In this document: positions 8,100-64,000 of the stretch, piece after piece | Layout of the letters: each line of letters starts with the position of its first letter | How positions within the stretch are numbered: position 1 is the first letter of the stretch | Origin: Nitrososphaerota archaeon | Lineage (GTDB): Archaea; Thermoproteota; Nitrososphaeria_A; Caldarchaeales; Caldarchaeaceae | Length of the DNA stretch: 64,000 nucleotides | Assembly: GCA_041641305.1 (NCBI GenBank) | Contig: JBEPYN010000001.1 | Coordinates: 736,001 to 800,000 of the forward strand | Direction: 5' to 3' | The notes under the pieces: generated by a model | The model's database searches: none | Told to the model about the DNA's origin: nothing | Seen by the model: only the letters and a program-made list of their open reading frames with translations | Position numbers and translations under genes: made by a program

Positions 8100-8111
8100 G
8101 GGTGTTGAGCC

Positions 8112-9026
8112 ATGTCGGTCACAAATCTCGGCCTAAGCGTCTTACTGCTTTTTATCTCTACATGGTTATTTGTCGACGGGGTTGAGGTTTTAGCCGCCAG
8201 GCTCAGGCTTACCAGGTTTGCTGCAGGAGCGTTGTTGGCCGCCATGTTGACAGCTATACCCGAGACGTTAATAGCAATGATATCTTATTTTCAACAAAAT
8301 TCTTCATCAGAGCTTGTTGGTGCTGGAAGTGTTATAGCAGCTCCCTCGATCACCCTTCTAATTGGGGCGCCTTTAGTAGCACTCTTTGTAAAGAATATCT
8401 CGGTCAGCAACGGTGTCGCGAAAAACTATGTCTACTTCATTGTATTTTTCACTTTGGCTATACTTCTTTCACAGTTTAACTTAGGCTCTTCCAGATACCT
8501 ATTCGGCTTGGTGTTTTTCCTCGTCTTTATTTATCTCGCTCGCTCTATATATGTTGAAGAGGGTGAGGAATTCGAGGTTGAAAGAATTGCGCTTGTTGAG
8601 AAGATTATTCAGAAAAACACTTGGCTTGTTGCTTCTCAGACTGGGTTGGCGGCGGCTGGGCTCTTCTATGGTTCAGATTTGTTCATAGATGCAGTTGCAA
8701 TGGCCGCACACCCGTTTGCGCTTACTTTGTTGGTTTCACCACTGGCAACATGTTTAGGGGAGATATTGTTGTCTTTCTATTGGCTGTTAAAAAATAGGGC
8801 CGACATCGCTTTAAGCCTTCTTTCGGGGGAAAACGCTATCCAGTCAACTTTTGTAATGAGTGTTGGGCTGGTTTTTACCAGATGGAGTTTTCCGCCGTCG
8901 GTGTTCAGCATCACCTTAGTTTATTTGACAGGGGCTGCTATCCTCTCGCTTCTTGTTTACAAAAAGAGGTTCAAGTTTGCTGCTGTGGTTCTACTGCTTT
9001 ATCCGTTTTACTTGCTTGCGGCATAG
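8112..9026 (+). CDS. Sodium/calcium exchanger (CaCA) family membrane protein
   Basis: About 10 hydrophobic segments; alpha-repeats LAAMLTAIPE and SPLATCLGE...GEN. Confidence 0.8.
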   Translation: MSVTNLGLSVLLLFISTWLFVDGVEVLAARLRLTRFAAGALLAAMLTAIPETLIAMISYFQQNSSSELVGAGSVIAAPSITLLIGAPLVALFVKNISVSNGVAKNYVYFIVFFTLAILLSQFNLGSSRYLFGLVFFLVFIYLARSIYVEEGEEFEVERIALVEKIIQKNTWLVASQTGLAAAGLFYGSDLFIDAVAMAAHPFALTLLVSPLATCLGEILLSFYWLLKNRADIALSLLSGENAIQSTFVMSVGLVFTRWSFPPSVFSITLVYLTGAAILSLLVYKKRFKFAAVVLLLYPFYLLAA

Positions 9027-10921: not shown

Positions 10922-12257
10922 CTGTGAAAACCGGCTGTGGCCCTGTTCTTCCCCCGATTTCGCCGCAGATGTCGCGTAGCATGAGGCTTTTCACTTCTTC
11001 ATACGTGGCTTTCTCGCCCAGTTTTCCGAGAACCCACATCAGCTTAACCAACGCGGTCTCGGGCAGCATGTTGTCCAGAGGGATAACACCCGCTCTCATC
11101 AGGTCTCTCCCGTTCTCGTAAACGTTCATGTTCACGCGTCCAAACCTGCACTGACTCGTCATCCCCACGAAAACACCCTTTTCCCTCAGCTTCTTCAACA
11201 CCGGCACGAAGCTTGTGGCCACGTGGCCCAACCCCGTCCCCTCGAGAATCACGCCACGCAAACCCATCCTCTCAACCAAAAGCTCCAACGCCTCCGGCTT
11301 CATGCCCGGGAAAAACTTCACAAGCATAACCCTCTCGTCGAACACGGGCTGGAACACGTATCCATGCTCTCCTCTCTTGTGGAACCTGGTGGTGAGGAGT
11401 TTGAGGCCCTGGGGTGTTTTGGCGGCGATTGGGCCTGCGTTGATAGACTGAAACGCTCCTCTGCTGCTTGTGTGGAGCTTGGCCACACGTGTCCCCCTAT
11501 GTATCAGGATGGTGTCATCACCGTGCCACGCATGCATGGCGACAACAACTTCAGCGAAGGGCGCCCACGCGGCAACCTCAACAGCCGTCAAAAGGTTCAG
11601 CGCCGCGTCGCTCGAAGGCCTGTCGGAGGAGCGCTGTGCACCGACGAGAACAACGGGCCCTGGCGGGTTCTGTAAAGCGAAGCTCAGGGCTGCGGCTGTG
11701 TAGCCCATGGTGTCGGTGCCGTGAGTTATGACGACGCCGTCAAAGCCTCTGCGGAAAAGCTCATCCACTTTCCGAGCAATCTCTGTCCAGTGGGCGGACG
11801 TCATGTTCTCGCTTACAACCTGCATCAGTATCTCCGTCGAGACGTTAGCCTTCTCAGCGATTTCGGGAACTATGCTGACGAGGTCGGATGCTGTGAGAGC
11901 GGGCTTTACTCCCCCTGTGCGGTAGTCTATTCTGCTGGCTATGGTTCCGCCTGTGTTGACGACCATGACGCGTGGCAGGTTTTCCCGGGGTGGGGCTGGC
12001 GGAGGTGGGTTGAAGGTGGGCGCGACGGCTGAAGAGAGTTTGCGTATCTGTGTAGAAGCGTCAACACGCACACCCATGTTGTAGCCGTTTGGAAGCTTCA
12101 AAACCAGAACATCCGGTTCCCCAAACTCGTAACGAGCCATCACAAACCCACGAAGCCTCAGCCCATTTCTAACAACCTCAACCTCGTCACCCAACCCCAC
12201 ACCAAGCCCTCTCAACACATCCGCAACAAACCCGCCGTAACCAAGTTCAGAAACCAT
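10902..12257 (-). CDS. gatD: Glu-tRNA(Gln) amidotransferase subunit D
   Basis: LKLPNGYNMG, TGGTIASRIDY, HGTDTM, GAQRSSDRPSSD; ATG at 12257 follows GAGGTG. Confidence 0.97.
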   Translation of the reverse strand: MVSELGYGGFVADVLRGLGVGLGDEVEVVRNGLRLRGFVMARYEFGEPDVLVLKLPNGYNMGVRVDASTQIRKLSSAVAPTFNPPPPAPPRENLPRVMVVNTGGTIASRIDYRTGGVKPALTASDLVSIVPEIAEKANVSTEILMQVVSENMTSAHWTEIARKVDELFRRGFDGVVITHGTDTMGYTAAALSFALQNPPGPVVLVGAQRSSDRPSSDAALNLLTAVEVAAWAPFAEVVVAMHAWHGDDTILIHRGTRVAKLHTSSRGAFQSINAGPIAAKTPQGLKLLTTRFHKRGEHGYVFQPVFDERVMLVKFFPGMKPEALELLVERMGLRGVILEGTGLGHVATSFVPVLKKLREKGVFVGMTSQCRFGRVNMNVYENGRDLMRAGVIPLDNMLPETALVKLMWVLGKLGEKATYEEVKSLMLRDICGEIGGRTGPQPVFTGETEFV

Positions 12258-12292
12258 GCTGTCAAAACACCTCTCACCCATGATATAAATCG

Positions 12293-12574
12293 TCAAGAAT
12301 TAGGCTCATATCCCCTCAACAGCTCGACAAGCTGCACCAAGCTCCCGGCAACAGGGTTCTCTGGGTTGAGCATAATCATCTTCACGCTCCTAAGCTTCCT
12401 CTGATACACTATTCCCAGCTTCTCAAAATTGTTCACCACTATGATGACGGTTGAAGGGGCCAAGCCCGTGGCCCGTGCAAGGTACCGTAGGCTGAAGGCC
12501 TTTCCCGGGTTTTCGAGGAGAAACTGCAGTATCTTTGAGTGTGCTTTTGATGCGAAGAGGTCGTGTAGCTTCAA
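12293..12574 (-). CDS. Small winged-helix DNA-binding protein
   Basis: KILQFLLENPGKAFSLRYLARATGLAPSTV helix-turn-helix pattern followed by a beta wing. Confidence 0.75.
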   Translation of the reverse strand: MKLHDLFASKAHSKILQFLLENPGKAFSLRYLARATGLAPSTVIIVVNNFEKLGIVYQRKLRSVKMIMLNPENPVAGSLVQLVELLRGYEPNS

Positions 12575-12604
12575 CCCCGCGGGGGTAGGGCTGTCGGCAG
12601 CCTA

Positions 12605-13294
12605 TTAATCTGCTACTATTGTTCCCGCCTGCTTGCCTATGAGGGCTTGGCGGACGGCTTCGAGGTTGTTTCCGTTGACATAGTAGAGTGGTATGCGTGT
12701 CCGGAGGGCCATGGCGAGGCCTACTGCGTCGATAAGCTGGTAGTCGCCGGCGCGCTGCGAAACTTTTTGGCTGATTTCGGCGAGCTGTGCGAAGCTTATC
12801 CGAGGCAGAAGCTTTGCGTCGGGGTTTTTCTTCGGGTCATCGGTGTATACACCGTCCACGTCGCTTGCTACGACGACTCTCTCAGCCCCTATAACAGAGG
12901 CCGCGTGTATGCTGACGGCCATCGTCGACTGCCCCGCCTGCATACCTCCCGAGACAACAATCTTCCCAAACCCCGTCAAGTAACGTATCTCGTCAACCGT
13001 CGTCGGCACAGCTTGGACAGCGAGGTCTCCGAGAGCTCTCGCAAAGAAATAGGCATGCAGCCGCGTTACCTTGATCGCCGCCTCGTCACAAGTCGCCTCA
13101 TCTAGGCCGATTTTCCTCGCGGCCGCAATATAACGGCGTGCCTGTTCACCGCCGCCCACCACCACAACCCAGCGCCCACCATCAAACAACTCCCCCAGAA
13201 GCCTCACATACCCCATCAACAACTCCACATCAACACCCTCACCAAAAACAACATGCCCACCAAGCTTCAACACAACATTAACCACGCCAACCAC
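12605..13294 (-). CDS. pyrH: Uridylate kinase
   Basis: VLKLGG, VVVGGGEQARRYI, GQST, DVDGVYTDDPKKNPDAK. Confidence 0.93.
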   Translation of the reverse strand: MVGVVNVVLKLGGHVVFGEGVDVELLMGYVRLLGELFDGGRWVVVVGGGEQARRYIAAARKIGLDEATCDEAAIKVTRLHAYFFARALGDLAVQAVPTTVDEIRYLTGFGKIVVSGGMQAGQSTMAVSIHAASVIGAERVVVASDVDGVYTDDPKKNPDAKLLPRISFAQLAEISQKVSQRAGDYQLIDAVGLAMALRTRIPLYYVNGNNLEAVRQALIGKQAGTIVAD

Positions 13295-13460
13295 TCACGA
13301 AAAAGAAACAAGACTGCCATAAAAACACAAGCTGATTAAAATACTGATTGAAGTAGAGCTGCGGGGAAGGGTTTTATCGATGGGAAAAGTTGACGGCTTA
13401 GCGTGGAAGCCGTTAGAGAATTTGCTGAGAAAATACATGAACTGAATCTCGTGGGCTTGG

Positions 13461-16196
13461 TTAGGGTGAATTTTTAGAGATTTTTCGTCTGATTATTTTT
13501 GATGTTTCGACGGCGGTGTAGGTGAATAGTGCGCCTCCGATTATCCATGTTAGGTCTGCTGTGGTGGGTGTTGTGAGGCTTAGGAGCTGTGCGGCTCCGG
13601 GGATTGTGAGGATGGCTGTTATAAGCGCTATTTCCCATGCGATTGCTATGAGCAGCCATTTGTGGGGTTTTGCCTCGAGGTTTGTGTACACGAGGGAGCG
13701 GCAGTTGAGGGCCAGCACAAGCTCGTTGGCGATGAACATGAGGAAAAGCCGTGTCCGCGCATGCTCTATCCCCTCGGGCAACGCTGTCAAATAGCCTATG
13801 AGGTAGAGAGGGGTGGTGACAACCAATATTGTGGCGAGCATGCCGAGCACCTCTCTGTTGAACACGGGCTCGTTTCGCGGGATTGGCTTCCGCTTCATGA
13901 TGTCGGGGTCGGGGGGCGCGAAGCCCAGCGCTATAGCGGGCAACCCGTCGGTCGCGAGGTTGATGTAGAGGATATGGACGGGGAGAAGAGGCAGCGAATC
14001 CTCGCCCCTAAGCCCAAGCAACTCAGCGAAGATAAGCGCAACAGAGGAAATCACGATTATCTCGACGAGGTTCGCCTCGAGCAGATAGGTTAGATATTTT
14101 CGCACGTTCCCATATATCCATCGCCCCAGCTCCACGGCTTTGACGATTGTCGCGAAGTTGTCGTCGGCGAGCATCATGTCCGAAGCCTCTTTCGCAACAT
14201 CTGTCCCCGTTATGCCCATCGAGACACCTATGTCCGCTCTCTTCAGAGCCGGTGCATCGTTTACACCGTCCCCGGTCATGGCGACAACGTATCCCTTTCT
14301 TTTCCAAGCCTCGACGATACGCAGCTTATGCAACGGAGATATTCTGGCGTAGACGACTACTTGTTCGACGATTTTGTCCAGCTCCTCGTCCGAGAGCCTG
14401 TCAAGCTCCTCGCCTGTTAGAACCATGTCTCCTTCCTTCATTATGCCGACTTCGCGGGCGACAGCCACCGCTGTGAGCTTGTGGTCGCCTGTCACCATCA
14501 CTGTCCTGATGCCTGCTTCATGTGCTTTCTTCACCGCGTCGTAGACCTCGGGCCTCGGCGGATCCATCATCCCAACCAACCCAAGAAAAACAAACCCGCT
14601 CTCCTCAAAACCGTCACCAGAATCAGGTTTATGGGCCACAGCCAACACCCTTAAACCCGCGGAGGCCATCTGCTCAGCAACGGAGAGAACCCTGGCCCTC
14701 TCCTGCTTATCAAGCACATGCATCTCCCCTTGCTTGTAAACTGCGTCGCACTTGGTTAAGACAACCTCGACCGCGCCCTTCATGTATCCAGCGACTCCAC
14801 CTCCCTCCACCTTGTGAAACGTTGTCATCATTTTCCTCTCCGAAGTGAACGGAATCTCATACACGCGTGGATGTGTCTTCCTAAGCGCCTCAACATCCCA
14901 GCCCAGCTTCCTCGCAAACAGAATCAAAGCACCCTCTGTCGTATCCCCTCTAACAGTCTCCCGTCCATCGACATCCTCGATTATGGCGTCGTTGCAGAGG
15001 ATGCTTGCCTTCAGTAGATGCTCGAAGGCCGGTGACTGTTTTTCTAAGCTGTCTACGTCGATGAGCTGGTCGTCTACGTAGACTTTTCTGACGGTCATTT
15101 GGTTAGTTGTGAGTGTTCCTGTTTTGTCGAAGCAGATGACCTGTGTGGAGCCGAGTGTCTCTACTGCGGGGAGTCTTCTGACGAGGGCGTTTCTCCGAGC
15201 CATTATGCCTGTTCCGATGGCGAGTGTGCCGGTCACGATGCCGGGAAGTGCTTCGGGAACAACCGCGACAGCAAGCGCGACGGCAAAGAGCAAAACCTCA
15301 ACTATGAAGCTCAGCGAAAAATCTCCCCCGGCCAGCTCGCGGAAAAGCTCCACCGCGAAGATAGCCACTATCACGACCGCGGCTATCACCGCGAACTTTT
15401 TCCCAATCTCATCCATCCTCCTCTCAAGAGGTGTTTTCTCCTCCTCTATCGCAGTGGTTGCCGCCGCTATTTTCCCGAACTCTGTCCTCTGACCCGTGGC
15501 CACGACGACGCCTTTCCCACGTCCATAGGTTACGATTGTTCCTGCGAAGGCCATGTTTACTCTGTCGCCCAGCGGCAGGTTCACTGGGAGAGGCTCAACC
15601 TTTTTCTGCACAGGCGTCGATTCACCCGTCAACGCCGCCTCGTTTGTCTGAAGGTTGATTGACTCAACCAAGCGGAGGTCTGCTGCAACTTTTGTTCCAG
15701 TTGTGAGGATGACGAGGTCTCCGGGGACAAGCTCCTTGTAAGAAATCTCACGTTCTCTCCCATCTCTGACAACCATGACCGACTGTGTGAGCATCTTCTT
15801 GAGAGCCTCTAGTGTTTTCTCGGCACGATATTCCTGCACAAACCCGACGACCGCGACGAAGAAGACGATGACAGCTATTACCAGTGAGTCAACCCATTCG
15901 CCGAAAAAAGCCGATATAACGATGGCTATGAGCAGTATCCCGATGAGTATGTTGGCGAATTGTTTTAGGAAGATTTTGATGGGCGAGGTTTTCTTCGGCG
16001 GCTCGAGCTCGTTAGGGCCGTATGTCTTAAGCCGGCTCGCTGCTTCTTCGCTCGATAACCCGTTTACAGAGTCTGTGCCAAGCCTCGCAACAACCTCCTC
16101 CACCGGCAAACTATGCCAACCCACTTCTTCGGCGATTGCTTGAGACAAGGGCTTCTGAAAGGGCGCTTTCACCCCTCTATAAAATGCTATTACCAA
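13461..16196 (-). CDS. Cation-transporting P-type ATPase (type II, Ca2+-like)
   Basis: TGES, VPEALP, DKTGTLT, DPPR, MVTGD, TGDGVNDAPAL, INLATDGLP; real start possibly the TTG near 16148. Confidence 0.95.
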   Translation of the reverse strand: MVIAFYRGVKAPFQKPLSQAIAEEVGWHSLPVEEVVARLGTDSVNGLSSEEAASRLKTYGPNELEPPKKTSPIKIFLKQFANILIGILLIAIVISAFFGEWVDSLVIAVIVFFVAVVGFVQEYRAEKTLEALKKMLTQSVMVVRDGREREISYKELVPGDLVILTTGTKVAADLRLVESINLQTNEAALTGESTPVQKKVEPLPVNLPLGDRVNMAFAGTIVTYGRGKGVVVATGQRTEFGKIAAATTAIEEEKTPLERRMDEIGKKFAVIAAVVIVAIFAVELFRELAGGDFSLSFIVEVLLFAVALAVAVVPEALPGIVTGTLAIGTGIMARRNALVRRLPAVETLGSTQVICFDKTGTLTTNQMTVRKVYVDDQLIDVDSLEKQSPAFEHLLKASILCNDAIIEDVDGRETVRGDTTEGALILFARKLGWDVEALRKTHPRVYEIPFTSERKMMTTFHKVEGGGVAGYMKGAVEVVLTKCDAVYKQGEMHVLDKQERARVLSVAEQMASAGLRVLAVAHKPDSGDGFEESGFVFLGLVGMMDPPRPEVYDAVKKAHEAGIRTVMVTGDHKLTAVAVAREVGIMKEGDMVLTGEELDRLSDEELDKIVEQVVVYARISPLHKLRIVEAWKRKGYVVAMTGDGVNDAPALKRADIGVSMGITGTDVAKEASDMMLADDNFATIVKAVELGRWIYGNVRKYLTYLLEANLVEIIVISSVALIFAELLGLRGEDSLPLLPVHILYINLATDGLPAIALGFAPPDPDIMKRKPIPRNEPVFNREVLGMLATILVVTTPLYLIGYLTALPEGIEHARTRLFLMFIANELVLALNCRSLVYTNLEAKPHKWLLIAIAWEIALITAILTIPGAAQLLSLTTPTTADLTWIIGGALFTYTAVETSKIIRRKISKNSP

Positions 16197-16285
16197 ATTA
16201 AGCTATTTAACATGGCTCAACGGATTTATTGCTGGTTAGCTTGGCTGTTTGTCTTTCGTAGCTGGTTGGTTGGCTGGTGTCGTTT

Positions 16286-17542
16286 ATGTCTCTGAGACGG
16301 GATTCTGTTTCACTGTATCAGTTTAGGCGTTTGCTAGAGACTATTGAGAGGCTTGAGGGCCGGGGCACGGAGCTTGTCACCCTCTATGTCCCTCCTGACA
16401 AATCCATATCCGATGTCATCAACTATCTCAGGCAGGAGTATGCCACCGCCTCTAACATCAAGTCGAAGCAGACGCGGAAAAATGTCCAAGACGCTATCGA
16501 GAGCGCTATTCAGCGGCTTAAGCTCTTCGACAGCCCGGGGCCAACCGGCCTCGTCATATTCAGCGGAGCCATTCCCCAGAACAGCGGCCAGACAAGCAAG
16601 ATAGAGGTTTACCATGTGATACCGCCGGAGCCGATAACCACTTTCCTCTACAGATGCGACAGCCGGTTTCACACCGAGCCGCTCAAAGAGCTCCTTCGCG
16701 AAAAAGCTGTCTACGGGGTGATTGTGATAGATAACGAGGAGGCCGCTGTAGCGGTGGTTAAGGGCCGCAGCATCTCCGAGCTGAAGACATACACCTCAGG
16801 CGTGCCTGGTAAACATCATGCAGGCGGACAGTCCGCGAGAAGGTTCGAGAGACTCCGGGAAATGACGCTCAACGAATTCTATAAACGCGTCGCCGAAAAA
16901 GCCAACGAAACCTTCCTACAGTACCCAGAGCTGAAAGGGGTGATTTTAGCGGGCCCGGGGCCCACCAAAGAGGTTTTCGCACAGGGCGATTATCTTCACT
17001 ACTCGCTCCGCGACAAAATCCACATCGTCGACACCTCCTACTCCGGGGAAAGCGGTGTAAGAGAGGCGGTGGCCAAGTCGGCTGATTTCTTGAAGGAGGT
17101 GAGGATGGTTGAGGAGCAGCGGCTTATTCAGCGGCTGATGTCGGAGGCGACACGGGCCGATGGCTTGGCGGTGTATGGTGAGAAGCAGGTCCGCGAAGCC
17201 CTCCGCAAAAACATGGTTGAGCTTCTACTCATCTCAGAGGACCTTGACAGGCTTGAGGTTAAGATAAGGTGTCAAAACTGCGGCTACGAAACAGTCTTCA
17301 CAATAGACTCGGGGGAGCTTTCGACAGAGGTGCCTAAGAAGCTCGCCGAGAAATGTCCCAGCTGCCAGAACCAGACTCTCACCCTCGCCGAAACCACTCC
17401 GCTGATAGATAAGCTGATTGCGGAGGCGGAGAACGTGAATGCCAAGGTTGAGCTGATCTCGTCGGAGCACGAGGAGGGGGAGATGTTCAAGAAAGCCTTC
17501 AGCGGGGTGGCAGGTTTTCTGCGACACCGTGGAGGCTACTGA
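16286..17542 (+). CDS. prf1: Peptide chain release factor aRF1 (eRF1)
   Basis: TASNIKS, YRCDSRF, GGQS; CxxC...CxxC insert in domain 3. Confidence 0.97.
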   Translation: MSLRRDSVSLYQFRRLLETIERLEGRGTELVTLYVPPDKSISDVINYLRQEYATASNIKSKQTRKNVQDAIESAIQRLKLFDSPGPTGLVIFSGAIPQNSGQTSKIEVYHVIPPEPITTFLYRCDSRFHTEPLKELLREKAVYGVIVIDNEEAAVAVVKGRSISELKTYTSGVPGKHHAGGQSARRFERLREMTLNEFYKRVAEKANETFLQYPELKGVILAGPGPTKEVFAQGDYLHYSLRDKIHIVDTSYSGESGVREAVAKSADFLKEVRMVEEQRLIQRLMSEATRADGLAVYGEKQVREALRKNMVELLLISEDLDRLEVKIRCQNCGYETVFTIDSGELSTEVPKKLAEKCPSCQNQTLTLAETTPLIDKLIAEAENVNAKVELISSEHEEGEMFKKAFSGVAGFLRHRGGY

Positions 17543-17891
17543 GTTGGATGAGAAGAGCTACATCGCGGTAGCCGACACCGTGCGGCTCAAGCTGGTTCAC
17601 GTCACAAAAGCTGAGCCGGAAGCATCTATTGGAAAGGATGAGCTTGAGAGATTCCCCCAGCTTCTCGACGCTCTGCAAAAAGCCAAAAACACTGCGTCGA
17701 CGACAATTTACCCAGGTGAGTTCGAGGCCCTCAACCCCGCACCCGTCGTCGTCACACTCTCGAAACAGGATGCGGAAAAATTCGTTGAACTTGTTAAACG
17801 TAAAACCAGCGTCAGCCTCTACAAACGGGCTGTGAAAATAGGGGTTGACGGCGATGTCTTCATCGTAGCGGTTGAGCATCACTGCGGCTAA
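17529..17891 (+). CDS. Hypothetical protein
   Basis: 120-aa ORF overlapping the aRF1 stop and filling the gap to a convergent gene. Confidence 0.65.
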   Translation: MEATELDEKSYIAVADTVRLKLVHVTKAEPEASIGKDELERFPQLLDALQKAKNTASTTIYPGEFEALNPAPVVVTLSKQDAEKFVELVKRKTSVSLYKRAVKIGVDGDVFIVAVEHHCG

Positions 17892-18646
17892 GGTTTTCCA
17901 TGGATGATTTCCAGCAGGTCCTTGGTTATTCGGCCGGGGTCGGGGTGCTGGAAAATGTTTCGGCCCATGGCTGCACCAGCTCCTCCGACGGATACGCTTT
18001 CTCGAACCATTTGAAGAACCTGCTGCTCCGACTCTATTTTCTCGCCGCCTAGAACCACGACGGGGACGGGGCATGTCTCGACAACATGTCTGAAGCTCGC
18101 GGGGTCTCCGGTGTAAACAGTTTTAACAAAATCACCGCCATATTCGGCACCTATCCGCGCCATCTTAGCCACCTCCTCGGGCGAGGGCCTTGACACAGGA
18201 TACATTTCGGCGAGAACAGGCAACCCGTATTCGCGGCAAGCCATGTTAACCGCCCAGAGGATATCCAAGTCCCGTTTCATGTTCTCGGAGCCGTAGCTGA
18301 TGTAGACTTTGACGGCGTCCGCGGCAACAGCAACAGCCGATGCGACACTCCTCTCAACGGTGTATGGGGATGTGTCCAGAAGAGTGAGTATCCACCCCAA
18401 GTTTTTGCGGGAAACAGAGGCCGCGTAGTTCTTCATTATGCCGTAGGTTGCCATCACGGCGTCAACACCTGCGCCAACGACCTTCTCCAAAACCTCGAGA
18501 GGCTTCTCGACACCTTTTACAGGGCCCATGAAAAACCCGTGGTCTATAGCAAAAATCAACGCGCGGCCATCTTCGCGGAAAACCCGGCCCAACCGTAGCC
18601 TCACACCCGTGTAATCCATGGCTGTTGGATATGTTCGCCTGGTCAT
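17888..18646 (-). CDS. Class I (DhnA/LsrF-type) aldolase
   Basis: AIDHG, PVLAEMYP, ARIGAEYGGDFVKT (Schiff-base Lys), VVVLGG, MGRNIFQ. Confidence 0.9.
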   Translation of the reverse strand: MTRRTYPTAMDYTGVRLRLGRVFREDGRALIFAIDHGFFMGPVKGVEKPLEVLEKVVGAGVDAVMATYGIMKNYAASVSRKNLGWILTLLDTSPYTVERSVASAVAVAADAVKVYISYGSENMKRDLDILWAVNMACREYGLPVLAEMYPVSRPSPEEVAKMARIGAEYGGDFVKTVYTGDPASFRHVVETCPVPVVVLGGEKIESEQQVLQMVRESVSVGGAGAAMGRNIFQHPDPGRITKDLLEIIHGKP

Positions 18647-56158: not shown

Positions 56159-57853
56159 ATGGCGGTAATCCTCGAAACAACCAACCTCGAAACCAAACGC
56201 AAACTCGTAACAAAGACAAGAAGTATCTGCCCCGAATGCAACAGAATACTCGAAGCAGACGTCGTCGAGGAGGAGGGTAAGATAAAGATCTACAAGACAT
56301 GTCCCAAACACGGCGAGTTCGACGACCTCTACTTCGGCGACGCCGAGATGTACTACCGCTTCGCAAGATGGCTCCACGACGGAAAAGGCACAGGAAACCC
56401 CAACGTCGAGATGCCACGCTGCGCATGCCCAGCCAACTGCGGCCTCTGCAGCAGCCACCTAAGCCACACAGGCCTCTCCAACCTCGTCATCACAAACAGA
56501 TGTGACCTACACTGCTGGTACTGCTTCTTCTACGCCGAAAAAGCAGGATACATCTACGAGCCAACCCTCGACCAGATACGTGAAATGGTCAAGCAGCTCA
56601 AAGCAGAGCGGCCCGTGCCCGGCAACTCTGTCCAGATAACTGGCGGAGAACCATGCCTCAGAGACGACCTGCCCGAAATAATCAAAATTCTGAAGGAAGA
56701 GGGAGTGGACCACATCCAGCTCAACACAAACGGCATCCGCCTCGCCCATGACTTCGAGTTCTTCAAACGAGTAAAGGAAGCGGGCGTAAGCAACCTCTAC
56801 ATGAGCTTCGACGGCGTCACACCACGGACAAACCCGAAAAACCACTGGGAAGTGCCCAAGACGCTCGAAAACGCCCGCAAACTCGGAGTAGGAGTTGTCC
56901 TCGTCCCAACAGTGATCAAATCGGTCAACGACCACGAGCTCGGCGACATCATCCGCTTCGGGTTCCAAAACATCGAGGTCGTGAGAGCTGTCAACTTCCA
57001 GCCCGTAAGCCTCACGGGCAGAATGCCCAAGAAAGAGCGTGAAAAATACCGCATCACAATACCGGACTGCATCCACAGAATAGAGGAGCAGACAAACGGC
57101 GAAATCCCCCGCGAAGCATGGTTCCCCGTACCAGCCTGCACACCCCTAACAAACTTTATCGAAGCACTCACACGCAAAGCACAGTACGAGCTAAGCATAC
57201 ACTTCGCATGCGGCGCAGGAACCTACGTCTTCAAAGACCACGACAAACTCGTCCCCATAACAGAATTCGTCGACGTCGAAGGCCTCATCAAATACCTACA
57301 AGACAAAACAGAAGAAATCGAAGCAGGCAAAAACCGCTTCTACATAGCCCTCAAAGTCCTCGCCAACATCAGCAAATACATCAACACCAAAAAACAACCA
57401 ACAGGCCTCAACCTCAAACAAATGCTATACAACATCATAGTCAAACACGACTACCACAGCGTAGGCGACTGGCACCGCAGATCACTCTTCCTAGGAATGA
57501 TGCATTTTATGGACCCCTACAACCATGACGAGGAACGATTACGCCGCTGCGACATCCACTACCTAACCCCCGACATGCGAATAATCCCGTTCTGCGCCTT
57601 CAACGTAATACCACACTGGTACAGGGACAGGATTCAGGCGATGTACGGGATTCCTATCGCTGAGTGGGAGAGGAGGACGGGCCGTAAGCTCAAGGACGAC
57701 TTCTACAAGCGCCAGCTACCATCAAAGCAGCAGACGATTCCATTGGCATCCACTAAAACAGCAGGCTTCGGTGGACTCAAAGAGGTACCTGTCATCCAAG
57801 GAGGTTCAGGCAAAGAAGAAAACTGCGGCTCCAGCTGCGGCTGCAGCCACTGA
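56159..57853 (+). CDS. tes: Tetraether lipid synthase (Tes/GDGT-MAS), radical SAM
   Basis: N-terminal SICPEC...KTCPKHG rubredoxin-like region, CPANCGLCSSH, CDLHCWYC SAM motif, TGGEP, C-terminal RCDIHY...RIIPFCAFN. Confidence 0.88.
   Translation: MAVILETTNLETKRKLVTKTRSICPECNRILEADVVEEEGKIKIYKTCPKHGEFDDLYFGDAEMYYRFARWLHDGKGTGNPNVEMPRCACPANCGLCSSHLSHTGLSNLVITNRCDLHCWYCFFYAEKAGYIYEPTLDQIREMVKQLKAERPVPGNSVQITGGEPCLRDDLPEIIKILKEEGVDHIQLNTNGIRLAHDFEFFKRVKEAGVSNLYMSFDGVTPRTNPKNHWEVPKTLENARKLGVGVVLVPTVIKSVNDHELGDIIRFGFQNIEVVRAVNFQPVSLTGRMPKKEREKYRITIPDCIHRIEEQTNGEIPREAWFPVPACTPLTNFIEALTRKAQYELSIHFACGAGTYVFKDHDKLVPITEFVDVEGLIKYLQDKTEEIEAGKNRFYIALKVLANISKYINTKKQPTGLNLKQMLYNIIVKHDYHSVGDWHRRSLFLGMMHFMDPYNHDEERLRRCDIHYLTPDMRIIPFCAFNVIPHWYRDRIQAMYGIPIAEWERRTGRKLKDDFYKRQLPSKQQTIPLASTKTAGFGGLKEVPVIQGGSGKEENCGSSCGCSH
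57588..57853 (+). repeat. Direct repeat copy 1 (3' end of intact tes); 35-bp identical core at 57680-57714
   Basis: Aligns codon-for-codon with 59706-59972; core GGCCGTAAGCTCAAGGACGACTTCTACAAGCGCCA. Confidence 0.95.
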
Positions 57854-58377
57854 ACACCCGTTTCTTAAATCCGATGATATCTGGAAGGAGACAATCCTAA
57901 CTTTTTTCTTTCTTCTGTATGAAGATTTTGACTTGTGTGTCTGTTAACGTCATACTTTTTACTGCGTAATAGTTTCTGCCACTTCCCAATGCTATCCTAG
58001 TTTTTCCATAGTTATGATATACTCGTAGTGTTTATGTCATCTAACTTGAACTGGACATAAGGTAACCAAGTATACCTACCCTCCGTAAACTTCACACTTC
58101 TTGGATCAAACCTCACGACAGGGCTGCGGTCTTCAAATAGCCGAAAGACCAGCCCCTACTTGATGATGAGCTTCAAAAAACTTTCTCCAATGCAGGCTTC
58201 TCTACAACCAGCAGTGTTTTTGTCATGCCGCCATCAACCACTAAAGCATGGGAATTATTTGGCCGCAGTCGACCTCTTCATATAATTGCTAAATGTGTAA
58301 TGTTCCGATGCTAGCCGATTAGTACAGCATCTTCAGATGAAGAGTTATAAATCTCTTTAACGTACAAATAGAACATG

Positions 58378-58393
58378 TTTATATATAATTATA
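58378..58393 (+). promoter_or_regulatory. TATA-box-like element upstream of the cargo gene
   Basis: TTTATATATAATTATA begins about 30 nt before ATG 58408. Confidence 0.5.
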
Positions 58394-58407
58394 CATCCCC
58401 ATAGTTT

Positions 58408-59517
58408 ATGAGAGGTAGCTTTGTACTTGGAATATTGGGCGGGGTTTTCGGCATTTTAGTCGGACTTGTGGTACTGGTCCTCGCGGGAACCAGTGAAGCT
58501 TTATCACCGTGGTTGGGTGAGGATACCAGACGCATAGTAGGGCAGCTATATGTTCAGACATTTGTAGCATTACTAGGTGGCGTACTAGGAATAATTGGAG
58601 GTGCAATAGGTAGAAAAATTGGCGGCGTAATACTGATGCTTGCTTCTCTATTTGTTCTTGTGGGAGGGGGGTTATTCGGAATATTGCCATTTATATTGTT
58701 GCTAGTCGGCGGAGTATTAAGTTTCAGAGAGGCCAAACACGAAATCGCCTTATCTAATGCTGAAGGGTACGGGACTGTGGGGAGGGGCAAGTCGAATACT
58801 CACGGATTGAGTTGTCCCCGATGTAGCAGCACTGATATGATTAAGTTGGATGATGAAGTCTACGAGTGCTGGAATTGCGGTTTACGATTCAAGAACGTTC
58901 GAGAACCATCGAGAGGTATATTCAAGTGGATAGCTGTAAGTGTCATGTTCTTTATGTTGGGGGCGATTTTAGGATATGGGGCTGGAAGCGCTGCTACGAC
59001 AAAAACTATCACGAATACTGTAACAGTGGACGTCGGCGTTATGAATACTCAAACCATTAGAGATCAGACTCCGGGTGGGGGACTGAGAACTGTCGGACTT
59101 ACTGAGTCTTGTCAGGTAAGTTTTAGTTCCCGTAAATTTGAGTTTTCTATTCTCCAATATATTCGTGGAAAAGAGGCTGACGATGAAATACAAAATGCTA
59201 ATCCTTTTAATCCTAAACCAGAAACAGGTTTTGAATACGTATTGATCAAGATAAGGCTCTCACATTTATCAGTCCAAGGATCCTCAGATACAATATCGAT
59301 CGGGCCTTACGATTTTATATTGTATGCAGATGGTGTAGGATACAAAGCAGAAATATTTTTAGTATATCCCGAAGATAAAAAAATGTTAGAATTTGTCGAT
59401 TTATTTCCAGGAGGTAGAGTTGAAGGATGGATCCTGTTTGAAGTGCCAGAAAAAACTTCTCTAATGCTAACTTTCACTCCTCTTAGTATCAAACCTCAAT
59501 GTTTTATCAGACTTTAA
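58408..59517 (+). CDS. Membrane protein: Gly-rich TM bundle, Zn-ribbon, TM, DUF4352-like Ig-fold domain
   Basis: GxxxG-rich helices; CPRC...CWNC; NPFNPKPETGFEYVLIKI...DLFPGGRVEGWILFEVP. Confidence 0.8.
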   Translation: MRGSFVLGILGGVFGILVGLVVLVLAGTSEALSPWLGEDTRRIVGQLYVQTFVALLGGVLGIIGGAIGRKIGGVILMLASLFVLVGGGLFGILPFILLLVGGVLSFREAKHEIALSNAEGYGTVGRGKSNTHGLSCPRCSSTDMIKLDDEVYECWNCGLRFKNVREPSRGIFKWIAVSVMFFMLGAILGYGAGSAATTKTITNTVTVDVGVMNTQTIRDQTPGGGLRTVGLTESCQVSFSSRKFEFSILQYIRGKEADDEIQNANPFNPKPETGFEYVLIKIRLSHLSVQGSSDTISIGPYDFILYADGVGYKAEIFLVYPEDKKMLEFVDLFPGGRVEGWILFEVPEKTSLMLTFTPLSIKPQCFIRL

Positions 59518-59705
59518 GTTACAAAGCGATAACATTGAATTCTTACAAAAAATAAGAAGCACTGTCGGTTGTAATCACGTATCTTAACGTGATTGGCTAG
59601 CACCTCGACCGCTCCGCTCCGGCATCCTCAGGTTCCTTTTGGTCTCCTTCCTGAGGAGATCAAACCATTAGATGATCCAATACTCCCCTTGGAAATGGGT
59701 CATGT

Positions 59706-59972
59706 CGTTCTGCGGCTTTAACGTCATACCCCACTGGTAACGTGACAGGATTCAGGCATAGTATGGTATACCCATATCGGAATGGGAAAAAACGAACCGG
59801 CCGTAAGCTCAAGGACGACTTCTACAAGCGCCAACTACCGACGAAACAACAGCCGATCTCCATGGCCTCTACTAAGACGGCCGGTTTCGGAGGCTTGAGA
59901 GAAGTACCCGTCATTCAGGGCGGCTCTGGAAAAGAAGAAAACCACGGGTCAAGCTGCGGCTGCAGCCACTAG
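59706..59972 (+). pseudogene. Direct repeat copy 2: displaced tes 3' fragment; identical core at 59799-59833
   Basis: FCGFNVIPHW*RDRIQA*YGIPISEWE(+1 A)KRTGRKLKDDFYKRQLPTKQQ...HGSSCGCSH*. Confidence 0.93.
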
Positions 59973-60152
59973 GTGAATAGTGAATCTTCCTCGGCCTTTT
60001 TGGACATAAGCGGGTATATTTTCGGGCTTCTCAGCTCTCCGTAGAAACCTTCCGCCTAGACCTCTAAGAACTGACTCCATCGCATCTCGCAGGATTACTT
60101 CTCGGTTCCTAAGAGTCCTGTCCATGGTCGTCTTAGGTGTTTGTTCGTTCAT
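59949..60152 (-). CDS. Short hypothetical ORF or gene remnant
   Basis: 67-aa ORF with no recognisable motif. Confidence 0.25.
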   Translation of the reverse strand: MNEQTPKTTMDRTLRNREVILRDAMESVLRGLGGRFLRRAEKPENIPAYVQKGRGRFTIHLVAAAAA

Positions 60153-60469
60153 GTCGTCGTGGCTGGCGAATAACTGTCGTCATTTAGCCTCCCTTCGAGT
60201 TCCAAGTATCACCGGACTATCTTGAAGTCGTCCTCGGATGCGTGTAAGAACATCGGCGTTCTTAACTTTTTGGGTGTTAAGCCTGTGATGACAAATAACA
60301 TTCAGCTAGCAGAGGGATGTGTTTTAGGCAAGCCTCCTCCTCACTCAAACCGTCAGCAAGCCCCTCACGATAAAGCCTGTTCAAACTCAACCCTCCACTT
60401 ATCGCTAATCCGCTTATAAAAAAGGCCCGGTTCAGACCCCTGTACTTCCAGAAAGTTGGAGACACTATC

Positions 60470-60937
60470 TTGGTTTACGCACCTCACGTTTTTCCCGGAA
60501 GAGACCCCGTCCTAATCCTAATATCCATAGCCATGATACTGTTACACACGCTCACAGGCTACATATACGCCAATCCGAAACTGATTCTAGAAGCCTTGTT
60601 GGCCTACCTATTTGTATCAACGGTGATCGCTATCAGAATTCTGGCGAGTTACCTCTACCTCCGGCCCTACGGACTCTTCCAGAGCTGGAGGATAAGGGTT
60701 ATCATGAAAGGTAAACCCCAATTAGAGGCAAAATTCGACGGCGATACATCACTAAAACAAATAATGGATTGGGCGTTGGCGAAGGTTTTCACCTCAAGCA
60801 AAAACAGGGTGACCGAAAACTATTCAATTCATTATGGTGATAAACAGTTAGATCCACAACTGCGGCTTTATCAGACAAAACTGCCCACAAAGCTAACACT
60901 TACGATAAGAAGAAAAAGGAGACTCGCCAAACTCTAG
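60470..60937 (+). CDS. Two-TM membrane protein with a possible C-terminal ubiquitin/UBX-like beta-grasp domain
   Basis: Two hydrophobic helices, then RIRVIM..LEAKFDGDTSLKQIMDW...YSIHYGDKQLDPQLRLYQTKL..TLTI. Confidence 0.6.
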   Translation: MVYAPHVFPGRDPVLILISIAMILLHTLTGYIYANPKLILEALLAYLFVSTVIAIRILASYLYLRPYGLFQSWRIRVIMKGKPQLEAKFDGDTSLKQIMDWALAKVFTSSKNRVTENYSIHYGDKQLDPQLRLYQTKLPTKLTLTIRRKRRLAKL

Positions 60938-61042
60938 CACAACTAATTCCAACCATCAATACATGTGAAATTTTTGGCATAAGCAGATATGTCTCTAGGG
61001 CTCTCCCTAATTTTATATACCTAGACTTGCTGTCTTACGTGG

Positions 61043-61435
61043 ATGCGTGAAGAGGCTAGGGATTGGTATGATGGGGCTTTGAATGATTTAAAGATGGCTG
61101 ACAGCGCTTTAGAGGCTGGTCTGAATAACTGGGCCATGTTCGCGGCTCATCAAGCCGTTGAGAAAGCTCTAAAAGCCTTGATAATAGCTAAACAACGTGA
61201 AAGGCCTCCCAAGACCCATGATTTGGTGGAGTTACTGCAACACGCTGGGATTCAGCTGGATAAGCGTATCGAGACAGTGCTTGCAGAGCTATCACCCTAC
61301 TACTCAGTCGCCCGCTATCCCAATGCTGGTTTGAGGCGGCCATGGGAAAGAATTAATAGAGAAACAGCGGTTAGGATGGTGGAAGCCGCTAAGAGCTTGG
61401 TGAAGGCCGTTGGAGAGAAGCTTGGAACTGCCTGA
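61043..61435 (+). CDS. HEPN-domain protein (toxin-type)
   Basis: AHQAVEKALKA, RPPKTHDL (Rx4H), YSVARYP. Confidence 0.9.
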   Translation: MREEARDWYDGALNDLKMADSALEAGLNNWAMFAAHQAVEKALKALIIAKQRERPPKTHDLVELLQHAGIQLDKRIETVLAELSPYYSVARYPNAGLRRPWERINRETAVRMVEAAKSLVKAVGEKLGTA

Positions 61436-61739
61436 GAAAGTCATTAAAGCATTGGAGTGCCTCAGGGCAGAGAAAGATAGCCTCAAGATAGAGGAGGCTT
61501 ATTTAGTTGGGAGCTACGCCAGGGGAGACTGGCTTAGAGACAGCGACTTGGACTTGATAATTGTGTCGCCGATTTTCAGAAACCTAGACGTAGGTGTGAG
61601 GTATAGGGTTGTCAAAGAGGCGATAGGATATGGTGTACCGCTAGAAGCCCTATGCTACACGCCCGAGGAATTCCAAGAAGCTAAGAATAGAAGCATAGTA
61701 GTTCAGGATATGTTGGAGTACGCTGTCAAAGTGATATGA
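61422..61739 (+). CDS. Minimal nucleotidyltransferase (MNT) antitoxin-type protein
   Basis: GSYARGD..DSDLDL motif; overlaps the HEPN gene; probable TTG start at 61422. Confidence 0.9.
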   Translation: MELPEKVIKALECLRAEKDSLKIEEAYLVGSYARGDWLRDSDLDLIIVSPIFRNLDVGVRYRVVKEAIGYGVPLEALCYTPEEFQEAKNRSIVVQDMLEYAVKVI

Positions 61740-62158
61740 AAGCCTTGAACCCGCCCCTCTACTACTGACCGCCAAGAGATCAGTATAGCATTGCCTCGCT
61801 AAATTAATGAATAGACGCTATACCGTTTATGCCTCTAACAATGTAAGACGCTGCACCTCTTGCCTGGACAGTCCCCAAGGTTGTCAGACACGAGGTAGTT
61901 GTTCCGAGGCCTAGACAGCGATAAAGGTGGGGTAGGCATTGGAAGCTTATAGATGAAGACATCTGAAGGAGACGGTAAGCTCAGGAAATCACATTATGGA
62001 TAACTAACAATAAAATTAGCGAAGTTGCTCCTAATCTCGACACCGCCGTCAGACCTAATACGTTTTTATTGGCTTTGATATCTCTCCTCCTCACCCAGTC
62101 AGGGTTTAACTCTTGTTGACCTGTTATACCTAACGACCTGTTGATCGGTCTCTTGATC

Positions 62159-63694
62159 TTACATTTTATAAATTTGTTCTCTTAGTCTATTATCAACGAT
62201 TGCGTTATCCACAACCTCGATAAGTTCGTCCCAATTCTTCAAATTTTCGTGTAGAATAGCCAACATGAACAGCCTTCTGATAATTCTTGCTATTGTTCTA
62301 TCGAAATCTGGGCCTAAGAACCTTTTGGGTTGCATAGCATTTTTAGAAAAGTGCGGTGCGATTTCTTTAATATTTACTTCAGCGTTAGGAAGGTTATCCC
62401 AAAAAAATTTCCCGTCTGTTTTTTCAAAGGGTAAAGAATAAGTTGGTGCATCGGGAAACACCTCTGCACCATGGACTATCTTGCTCCTTGCTCGATATAA
62501 TTCTGTCAGAAATTTACGATGATAGATGGCCTGTTTTTCGTCTCCGCTCGCTAGAAGAGCTCCTCTTAGAGCTAATCTATATGTTATCTCCTCTCTTTCG
62601 CTGTCTTTGGATAGAAGAGTCTCTAGTAGAATGCAGTAGTTTAATATTTCATCCTCAGCATCTCTGGTGGGAACCGATAATCTCTTACCTATGACCTCTA
62701 ACTTTCTCTCCAGCCCTTTCACACGCTTTCTCAGAATCTCTATTTGCCTCCAGACATTCATTAGGTCGGTTACATCTACTGTAATTGTTTTTTTATCAAG
62801 TTTGCTTGGAGGATGAATCGTCAGACCGCTGGCCCACTCATACATTTCTTCCTTTAAATAATCACCAAAATCTAGATTAGGCCATAATATCAGAGAATTT
62901 CCCATCTCATGCAACTCACCTGTGGTAACAATCCGCTTTATATCTATTCCTATCACGTTATGAAAAATTATGCGATGGGATGAATCAGGGAGGGATTCTT
63001 CTTTGTTTTCTCGTATCTTATTGTCCCTCAGCCCAACTAAAAAGACAGAAACCATAAAGTGTCCTAATACTTTTCTTATCATAGAAAAGACATGCTCTAT
63101 GTCAACAGAATCTAGAAATTCAGATACTCTAGCTTTGAAATCCTTTATCTCTAGGATATAAAGGGACCTGCCTTTGTCATCTTTCTGGGAAAAAAGTCTA
63201 AGATTATCATTAAGCCACACTGGTTCTTCATGGATCTCGATCTCGACCGAGGATTCTATGTGGATTTTAATAGGGGTGAGCATGCATCTCTCATCAAAAA
63301 AGGTACAGAGAACGTTCAAAACTTTATCAGGTTTCCCGCTTATCAGTGAATCGTTGATAAAGCTTCTTATAACCTCCACCGCCAACCAGGGTAACTGGCG
63401 CAAATGTGTGGCATTAGATTCTTCCCAATCGTCGGCCTCGACAATTGGCTCGACTTGTTCAAAATATCTTCTGAAGCTCTTGCAGTTAATGAGCTGCTCT
63501 AAGACACGTTGATACTCTGGCAACATTTTCAATGATTCATTGAAAATGGATGCATCGTCGATGTTGAGATTGATATACTTAGGTAAAAGAAGTTCTCCGG
63601 AGACAATCATAGACTTCACCCGCTCGAATAGATATAACATGTCATCACGTAAATCGGAAAACCTCTCGGGCATGATGTTCTTAATTCGTTGCAA
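62159..63694 (-). CDS. Large protein with C-terminal ApeA-like HEPN domain
   Basis: ILLETLL, EITYRLALRGALL, LYRARSKIVHG (Rx4H); AT-rich codon usage. Confidence 0.8.
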   Translation of the reverse strand: MQRIKNIMPERFSDLRDDMLYLFERVKSMIVSGELLLPKYINLNIDDASIFNESLKMLPEYQRVLEQLINCKSFRRYFEQVEPIVEADDWEESNATHLRQLPWLAVEVIRSFINDSLISGKPDKVLNVLCTFFDERCMLTPIKIHIESSVEIEIHEEPVWLNDNLRLFSQKDDKGRSLYILEIKDFKARVSEFLDSVDIEHVFSMIRKVLGHFMVSVFLVGLRDNKIRENKEESLPDSSHRIIFHNVIGIDIKRIVTTGELHEMGNSLILWPNLDFGDYLKEEMYEWASGLTIHPPSKLDKKTITVDVTDLMNVWRQIEILRKRVKGLERKLEVIGKRLSVPTRDAEDEILNYCILLETLLSKDSEREEITYRLALRGALLASGDEKQAIYHRKFLTELYRARSKIVHGAEVFPDAPTYSLPFEKTDGKFFWDNLPNAEVNIKEIAPHFSKNAMQPKRFLGPDFDRTIARIIRRLFMLAILHENLKNWDELIEVVDNAIVDNRLREQIYKM

Positions 63695-63754
63695 CTAGAT
63701 AAGCCTTTTATTATTCGATCTCGACACTGTCACTTTTTAAAGTTTTCCAGCTTA

Positions 63755-64000
63755 TTACCTTGTGGCTTGATTTTTTCTTTCTCTATCGGCTCTTGAATCT
63801 TTGTCTAGGTGTTTCTCTGTCATGTTATCTTCTTTATGGGTTGTTGGTGGGAGGTGGATGAGCGGCTCATCAGGAGGGGCATCCTTGTACCGGGTCTCAC
63901 GTTCGTCAAGCATTATTGTGCTGGGTTTAGGGAGGTAACTGTGGTAAGAGGGTAGGCCCTTCAAGATACCAGCAGCTATGTTATGGTCCATAGCTGTGTG
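63755..64000 (-). CDS. Possible 3' end of a gene truncated by the window edge
   Basis: Frame open to the window end; no motif recognised. Confidence 0.3.
   Translation of the reverse strand, partial: HTAMDHNIAAGILKGLPSYHSYLPKPSTIMLDERETRYKDAPPDEPLIHLPPTTHKEDNMTEKHLDKDSRADRERKNQATR

Follow-up and report, generated by a model that had tools for sequence, protein, structure and literature searches.

Introduction

How can the 3′ end of a conserved gene come to stand twice, on either side of a small AT-rich cassette, in a genome where no tyrosine or serine recombinase was detected? The question is raised by a stretch of 64,000 nucleotides (nt) from an archaeon of the order Caldarchaeales (assembly GCA_041641305.1, contig JBEPYN010000001.1, positions 736,001 to 800,000; hereafter the window, G000:C1:736001-800000), which belongs to a genome assembly, G000, of 1.66 Mb in four contigs and 99.3% complete. 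The gene is tes, which encodes a tetraether lipid synthase of the GDGT-MAS/Tes family, and its last part recurs about 2.1 kb downstream, beyond one further gene. We hold it likely, with a probability of about 0.65, that this 2.1-kb segment is a recombinase-free gene cassette that entered by one homologous crossover with a tes tail carried on circular DNA. A preliminary description of the same DNA had seen in the arrangement a single crossover, placed in an att-like core, of a tes-targeting element or a satellite cassette mobilised in trans. The single crossover fits what we found; a fixed core and an integrase are not supported, as set out below. Positions are those of the window unless a contig is named.

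Two copies of the tes tail

The tes gene (56159..57853, + strand) is intact and 564 amino acids (aa) long, with Radical_SAM and Zn_ribbon_HMPTM domains (PF04055 and PF23545 in Pfam). A phmmer comparison aligns its residues 17-506 with GDGT-MAS of M. jannaschii (PDB 7TOL) at an E-value of 8e-138, and by these domains and this similarity the product is predicted to be a full-length tetraether synthase. The Tes proteins of two members of the same genus, the complete, C. subterraneum-like genome G009 and the locus L136, share 96-97% identity with it. The match to 7TOL goes no further than residue 506, and proteins of other phyla can be aligned only until about residue 520; residues 520-564 are thus an extension specific to Caldarchaeales, with a cluster of Cys and His residues at its end. 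The tes genes of some Caldarchaeum relatives (L143:1554-4616, G003:C13 and G008:C31) hold an intein of about 455 aa (Intein_splicing, LAGLIDADG_3, Hom_end) at about residue 123, within the radical-SAM CxxxCxxC motif; the tes gene of the window is intein-free.

As the preliminary description had noticed by eye, the 3′ end of tes recurs at 59706-59972 with a 35-bp core. The repeat search returned the last ~265 nt of the gene as two direct blocks, 57588-57669 = 59706-59787 (78% identity, spacing 2118) and 57677-57851 = 59796-59970 (80%, spacing 2119). The core, 57680-57714 = 59799-59833, is identical in both; the search for further copies that had been proposed at the outset gave just two occurrences of this 35-mer in the window, and throughout the whole genome the tail matches two places only, the repeat copies themselves. 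Copy 1 (57588..57853, + strand) is the functional gene end and of the genus type over its whole length. Copy 2 (59706..59972, + strand) lies outside any gene and consists of a pre-core part (59706-59798), the core (59799-59833) and a post-core part (59834-59972), the end of which resembles the tail of the Caldarchaeales genome HR02. The core encodes GRKLKDDFYKRQ, the block with which the conserved catalytic domain of Tes closes; the residues behind it form the extension. A second block of identity, of 19 nt, covers the last tes codons (57833..57851, + strand) and is repeated at 59952-59970.

Before the core, the copies are 74% identical, and copy 2 has two stop codons (Y to TAA and M to TAG) and one extra base directly before the core; the differences fall mostly on third codon positions (3/3/15). 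Nucleotide identity after the core is also 74%, with an undisrupted reading frame in copy 2 and differences distributed 6/3/27 over the codon positions; 16 of the 45 codons are identical, 23 differ synonymously and 6 non-synonymously, so that the first count by eye (30 of 46 codons different, 24 of them synonymously) was essentially right. The same description took the pre-core part for an element-borne segment that had already decayed. The two stops and the +1 shift are indeed there, but the remaining differences keep the third-position bias of a coding sequence, and the recent lesions are only three. Because this bias extends to the pre-core part, that part too stems from a functional tes, and copy 2 in its entirety thus goes back to the working gene of another lineage. 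It is now decaying, as shown by a new lesion, an extra A after 59804 within its core, in the strains of two metagenome sequencing runs (X2 and X6).

How unusual is the identical block? As a chance null we took functional tes tails in pairs of similar divergence (70-82% identity, 156 pairs). Their longest exact run has a median of 14 nt and a 95th percentile of 27.5 nt, and the 7/156 pairs with a run of at least 35 nt are mosaic or truncated ones. This makes the 35-mer unusual, though it is sited in the best-conserved stretch of the tail, the one that encodes GRKLKDDFYKRQ and in which the longest runs of 42/156 pairs also end. It may be either a patch of gene conversion or a crossover site.

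The arrangement is seen in independent samples. Contigs of four runs, from four different hot-spring metagenome studies, span both junctions at 95-99% identity and with even depth; those of run X4 cover 57644-59136 and 59181-60343, and those of X2 and X6 each cover 57679-60343. Because the same arrangement is carried by contigs of four independent studies, it is not an assembly chimera.

An empty and an occupied site in a sister lineage

Integration of a non-replicating circle by a single crossover, known as Campbell-type integration and used in archaeal and bacterial genetics as “pop-in/pop-out”, leaves homologous direct repeats around the insert, as hybrid copies jointed at the point of exchange; the reverse event removes the insert and may leave a patch behind. 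Two contigs of one species, from a sister lineage to that of the window, allow this process to be followed base by base: L053, a contig of a metagenome-assembled genome (MAG; JAUQPZ010000030.1), and L145, a 125-kb metagenome contig (Ga0209289_100017). Positions 1-6344 of L053 correspond to 3821-10164 of L145 at 99.8% identity, and positions 6059-12375 to 11667-17983, practically without mismatch past the tail. L145 thus equals L053 plus an insert of 1,788 bp, L053 being the empty and L145 the occupied site.

The insert of L145 consists of a new tail end for tes (..GGSGKEEACGCGH*), one gene for a protein of 429 aa with an Mrr-type nuclease domain (Mrr_cat) and zinc ribbons, and a decayed piece of tes tail with three stops and lost cysteines. 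Behind it, the displaced original tail (..NCAHSYGCKQ*) and its flank are identical to L053. This insert, too, is AT-rich (42.5% GC against 52%). The two tail copies share an identical block of 41 bp (10106-10146 = 11894-11934), which encodes AGFGGLKTIPTIQG and lies about 90 nt further 3′ than the 35-bp block of the window. Over all of the GRKLSDDFYKRK codons, copy 1 of L145 does not differ from the empty site; the exchange here was therefore not at the “core” of the window. Immediately to the left of the 41-bp block, two single-nucleotide polymorphisms (SNPs) are of the element type in both copies; they form a conversion tract, and they also argue that L053 is ancestral rather than the product of a pop-out. 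The occupied site is the empty site plus an insert flanked by a duplicated, hybrid homologous segment: the L145 cassette entered by a single crossover within the tes tail, and the C-terminus of Tes was truly swapped. The preliminary description had expected such a swap, with an open displaced tail, in the window itself; it is directly seen in L145, while in the window the tail is probably unchanged. The empty site that it hoped to find in relatives was found, likewise, for the L145 event, and none was found for the lineage of G000.

Neither event is isolated, which bears out the early view of the tes 3′ end as a repeated target. Extra fragments of tes tail are present in 6/74 other species genomes of the order (five in G003, two in G004, and others in G023, G037, G056 and G072) and in the metagenome contigs L142, L159, L161 and L145. 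L159 holds two inverted fragments, with no recombinase between them. Several of the free fragments begin at residue 452. The same boundary appears within a working gene: along tes, G009 and L136 are 91-99% identical except for a patch of ~230 nt (nt 1350-1577; loci L004/L033), where G009 is ~91% identical to HR01, a member of another genus, and on its left this patch starts (residue 451/452) where free fragments start as well. Neither G009 nor L136 has a second tail copy, and the patch is what a pop-in followed by a pop-out elsewhere in the tail would leave. These comparisons mark the tes 3′ end as a hot spot of recurrent recombination.

Among the free fragments there is also a stand-alone open reading frame (ORF) of 105-109 aa, which corresponds to tes residues 452-553 with an ATG of its own (L039:4387-4704 and L042:8422-8751) and is 100% identical at the protein level between the species-level MAGs G003 and G004. 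It could be an expressed C-terminal domain of Tes or the trace of a very recent transfer.

Where the exchange probably fell in the window

To place the exchange in the window we used informative sites, the positions at which the genus (L136 = G009) differs from HR02. Copy 1 follows the genus throughout, with genus to HR02 states in proportions of 11:3 before the core (57588-57679), 8:0 in the core (57680-57714), 13:2 in the first 66 nt after it and 14:2 in the last 73 nt. Its identity to L136 over these four segments is 0.88, 0.86, 0.77 and 0.90, the last 73 nt being thus 90% identical. Copy 2 gives 9:2, 8:0, 11:6 and 7:8, so that its end is enriched for HR02-type states (8/17 sites). Moreover, copy 2 shares 85% identity with the HR02 tail over its last 108 nt, and its ..ENHGS.CGCSH* ending is found, among 185,579 species genomes, in HR02 only. 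The 388 bp right after the tes stop codon are also closest to HR02: 57854-58241 is 76% identical to L054:6379-6768 of HR02 and 69% identical to L143, a member of the genus (blastn). HR02 itself has this tail end and this flank contiguous.

Copy 1 probably keeps, then, the tail of its genus, with no swap in the window. The opposite had first been proposed, namely that tes had received a foreign tail and that copy 2 was its original one; the genus-type end of copy 1 (14:2), the HR02-type end of copy 2 and the HR02-like flank speak against it. Because copy 1 is of the genus type up to the terminal 19-nt block (57833-57851 = 59952-59970) and the sequence is HR02-type straight after it, we infer that the crossover most likely fell in this block. 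A circle opening there would have separated the HR02-type tail end from its flank just as observed. In our view, the tail that came in is copy 2, the 35-bp identity is a patch of conversion, and the mosaic structure of copy 2, of family type first and of HR02 type at its end, suggests an earlier passage through an HR02-like host. An exchange at the 35-bp core instead has perhaps one chance in four. Trees of the short segments (92-147 nt), in which the fragments form one group for the pre-core part and join different hosts for the post-core part, were used as a pointer only.

A proposed portable homology arm

These observations can be brought together in a simple scheme. A diverged tes tail carried on circular DNA would recombine with the 3′ end of the resident tes gene, presumably by means of the homologous recombination machinery of the host, in a Campbell-type pop-in. 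Since the tail is conserved across Caldarchaeales, it could act as a portable homology arm with which any circle that bears it may enter the tes gene of a related host. Each insertion would duplicate the tail and, depending on the position of the exchange, replace part of the Tes C-terminus. Here, an exchange in the last 19 identical bases would have left tes with its own tail, copy 2 being the incoming one, already mosaic from earlier passages, one of them through an HR02-like host; an HR02-like remnant of a neighbouring 263-aa gene would have travelled with it between cells, and the 35-bp block would be a short tract of gene conversion where the repeat is best conserved. If pop-in and pop-out are repeated, the distal part of the carried tail would join a working gene each time and stay under selection, and the proximal edge would never do so, which may be why the lesions of copy 2 lie before the core and none after it.

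Two independent cassettes that differ in cargo and in the point of exchange, with diverged homology over 265-290 nt, tracts of conversion and no recombinase, fit a homologous insertion better than a site-specific one. Both inserts are AT-rich (41-42.5% GC against 52-53%), and both the varying position of the exchange and the nearby conversion tracts that a Campbell-type event allows are found, in the two unlike blocks, the two SNPs of L145 and the patch of G009.

Several points weigh against this scheme. The 35-bp identity falls in the top ~4% of the empirical null, and an exchange in the terminal block needs an extra step of conversion to account for it. The remnant of the 263-aa gene on the incoming DNA demands one illegitimate circularisation in an earlier host, and homologous recombination on 19-41 nt of identity within DNA that is ~75% identical is assumed from other archaea. 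Only two complete cassettes are known (n = 2), and the segment trees are weak. For the lineage of G000 no empty site was found: G009, L136 and L137 carry other DNA after tes, and the runs that hold the G000 strain all have the cassette, with no empty allele. Nor did the contigs of the four runs give a circle or an excision joint (none skips 57715-59833 and none runs backwards), in a kind of data where contigs hide rare forms.

Other explanations

The explanation that survives best after this one, unlikely as we judge it, is a tes-targeting element or satellite whose site-specific integrase acts in trans or has since been lost, with a crossover in a 35-bp att core that put a foreign tail onto tes and displaced the original. 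The flanking direct repeats do share that core, the target gene is undamaged, and a close relative with the site empty was found, for the L145 event only. The lesions of copy 2 are all before the core (3 in 92 nt against 0 in 174 nt, p ~0.04 if they are distributed uniformly), the identity between G000 and G004 falls at the core, and integration into the 3′ end of a protein gene, with the frame restored, has precedents among related archaea (PMC6563490) and in e14, which sits in icd (PMC13626634). However, an encoded or resident recombinase is precisely what was not detected: a whole-genome search of G000 gave no tyrosine (PF00589), SSV-type (PF16795) or serine (PF00239) recombinase, with the control genomes positive. 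Among the relatives, 13/40 genomes searched have tyrosine recombinases, which are thus sporadic, and the PF00589 search found none on any of their contigs that bear a tes-tail fragment; no carrier of a tes tail was found, either, among 2.9 million viral contigs. Independent insertions should also use the same core, and they do not, since the shared block encodes GRKLKDDFYKRQ in G000 and AGFGGLKTIPTIQG in L145, with the exchange of L145 ~90 nt downstream of the window core, and the patch of G009 has other boundaries again. Finally, a genus-type post-core part in copy 1 and an HR02-type end in copy 2 are the opposite of what this model predicts. As to the recombinases of G000 in general, no tyrosine recombinase of any type was detected, XerA-type included.

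Other classes of mobile element fare no better. The cassette ends have no inverted repeats and, in the repeat search, no terminal inverted repeats (TIR) or target site duplications (TSD), the sole Cas1 gene lies 36 kb away (C1:832473), and Pfam finds only DUF4352 (weakly) and Mrr_cat among the genes of both cassettes, which leaves a casposon or a transposon of the insertion-sequence type without its defining features.

A whole-island import is improbable, and more so than the integrase model. Under this explanation, the island downstream of tes, repeat included, would have come from a related strain by allelic replacement through a double crossover, with tes and a 155/242-aa gene as arms, the pop-in having taken place in another lineage. 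The loss of four native neighbours of tes (of 263, 101, 575 and 331 aa), the truncation of the 155-aa gene at the edge of homology, the polymorphism between strains at 60343 and 60421 and the variability of the zone after tes in every lineage examined all agree with such an import. But copy 1 is of the genus type as far as its last codons, and the import is an extra step, given that the repeat would still need a single-crossover origin somewhere.

An old tandem duplication of the tail in place, with later insertion of a gene and occasional gene conversion, would explain both the identical core and the equal divergence on its two sides (74% each). We regard it as very improbable. The HR02-specific states at the end of copy 2 are in no other of the species genomes compared, the third-position-biased divergence must have accrued in working genes of different lineages, and the close relatives G009 and L136 are without a second copy. 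Slightly weaker still is a programmed, shufflon-like switching among silent tes tails stored downstream. It could appeal to the several fragments of G003 and L159, some of them inverted, to the tes end as an inversion breakpoint between G000 and G009, and to the purifying selection on the tail extension; against it stand the direct orientation of the copies in the window, the failure to detect a recombinase, the decay of copy 2 through stops, frameshift and, in some strains, the new A, and the sporadic occurrence of fragments. As for a chimera of assembly or of strains, the frequent breaks of short-read MAG contigs in or just past the tes tail might suggest one, and the even, four-study coverage of both junctions reduces its probability to next to nothing.

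The cassette gene and the surrounding island

The DNA between the copies was rightly described from the start as AT-richer, with one gene and no integrase: it has 41% GC, compared with 53% for tes, and one ORF of 369 aa (58408..59517, + strand). The protein has N-terminal transmembrane helices, a zinc ribbon, a further transmembrane helix and a weak DUF4352 match (Pfam E 2.5e-5, under the curated cut-off). It matches three entries among 5.8 billion proteins, and it is without homologue in its genus and family, with relatives at 32-50% identity in other families only. Two contigs of ~1.7 kb with homologues of it, P0002 and P0003, were considered as possible free circles and rejected, having neither terminal overlap nor a tes tail.

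The left part of the inserted DNA is a pseudogene remnant (57854..58244, − strand) with several stops, HR02-like, which corresponds to the C-terminal ~114 codons of the 263-aa gene (40% identity over residues 138-251, tblastn). An RNA gene was rejected for the conserved 388 bp after the tes stop: Rfam and tRNA scans gave no match anywhere in 57500-64000, and the stretch is the remnant of the 263-aa gene.

The native surroundings of tes can be reconstructed from an order-wide comparison. Directly downstream of tes there is a gene of 263 aa, convergent in HR02 and L143, followed by a gene of 101 aa, by one of 575 aa that encodes a free-standing double LAGLIDADG-like protein, by one of 331 aa and by a divergent membrane protein of 216-242 aa. 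The double LAGLIDADG-like protein, of 435-590 aa, is a conserved neighbour of tes in Caldarchaeales, one to two genes from its 3′ end (L054:7798-9525 in HR02, L033:2764-4071, L040:1971-3743 and many metagenome loci), and it is deleted in the window. Two native pieces survive there, the remnant of the 263-aa gene and a truncated 155-aa homologue of the 216-242-aa membrane protein (60410-60937, with homology from 60410), and no others; between them, the native genes have given way to the cargo gene, copy 2 and 440 bp of DNA that has no match. Upstream, synteny with G009 (85%) extends over 17.5 kb and has its limit at the tes stop codon. From G000:C1:800214 on, ~214 bp beyond the window end, the DNA belongs to the core genome again, and in G009 this DNA sits 72 kb from tes and inverted. 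The region equivalent to G000:C1:800214-800360 lies in G009:C1:939406-948069, and a 148-bp piece from its start is present in L136 and L137 too, in inverted orientation and 6.6 kb past tes.

The rest of the variable island (59973..64000) continues with an intact HEPN-MNT pair (61043-61739) in AT-rich DNA and an adjoining ORF of 511 aa (62159-63694, − strand) with no family match; the pair and the 511-aa protein are typical content of a defence or toxin-antitoxin island. For the proteins of 369, 155 and 511 aa, as for the module of native neighbours, NCBIfam and PADLOC returned no significant match. The island differs between strains, those of other hot-spring metagenomes parting from G000 exactly at 60343 and 60421. 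One contig of run X6 carries ~7.3 kb of extra DNA at 60343/60421, which makes this a second polymorphic insertion point within the island. For the DNA beyond 59972, a previous insertion at this site had been tentatively proposed; the DNA is accessory and varies between strains, but no further remnant of the tes tail bounds it.

Known systems and significance

The nearest parallel in bacteria is the prophage e14 in the icd gene of E. coli. According to PMC13626634, which cites Hill et al. 1989, e14 supplies icd with a new end that differs from the old one at many synonymous sites and leaves the displaced C-terminal fragment as the pseudogene icdC, and upon its excision both ends recombine into a chimeric, working icd. 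Like e14, and like phage 21 in the same gene, the inserts described here sit in an essential metabolic gene, at its 3′ end, with an incoming end and a displaced fragment. The prophage measures 15 kb, encodes a site-specific integrase and uses a fixed att site, whereas the tes inserts have 1.8-2.1 kb, one cargo gene, no recombinase and varying points of exchange.

Closer in phylogeny are the integrated elements of Thaumarchaeota, from the same phylum-level group, 14/68 of which reside in the 3′ ends of protein genes with the frame restored, as validated by comparison of empty and occupied sites (Krupovic et al. 2019, PMC6563490). The kind of target and of evidence is thus shared. However, the elements of that survey, which included C. 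subterraneum, were defined by an integrase or a casposase and short att sites or TSD (13 bp in the worked example; PMC6563490), and tes is not among the listed targets, whereas the homology here is ~265-290 nt long and diverged, with no integrase.

The small size of the cassettes and their position in a hot-spot island, between partial copies of the target gene, recall on the other hand the tycheposons of Prochlorococcus. Their cargo-only satellites reportedly lie in islands between partial-tRNA repeats, have tRNA or tmRNA genes as targets and require the tyrosine or serine recombinases of full elements; here neither such a recombinase nor a full element was found. Campbell-type pop-in and pop-out, finally, shares with the tes inserts the duplicated homologous segment, the hybrid copies and a patch such as that of G009, and differs in being a laboratory procedure. 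We found no description for archaea of a natural and recurrent pop-in between genera that is anchored on one conserved gene end.

More speculatively, the conserved tes 3′ end might be the landing pad of an undescribed archaeal mobilome of single-gene, integrase-free circles, often with defence-type cargo such as the Mrr-like nuclease, that would hop between genera and families of Caldarchaeales by homologous recombination alone. Each passage would reshuffle the arm and sometimes rewrite the C-terminal extension of Tes, and the free-standing LAGLIDADG-type neighbour might promote the process by cutting nearby. We put this wider picture forward tentatively, as a doubtful extension of the single-crossover origin argued for above.

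For the biology of these hot-spring archaea, with their sporadic tyrosine recombinases, a homologous origin of the cassettes would mean a concrete route of gene flow, in which the conserved end of an essential gene may serve as a universal homology arm for small circles. The tail recombination would explain as well the frequent breaks of short-read MAGs at tes in this group. The C-terminal extension of Tes appears as a mosaic that has been repeatedly exchanged between lineages, which matters for the use of tes as a phylogenetic or lipid-biomarker marker, and its natural tail variants offer a way of asking what this Cys/His-rich extension does.

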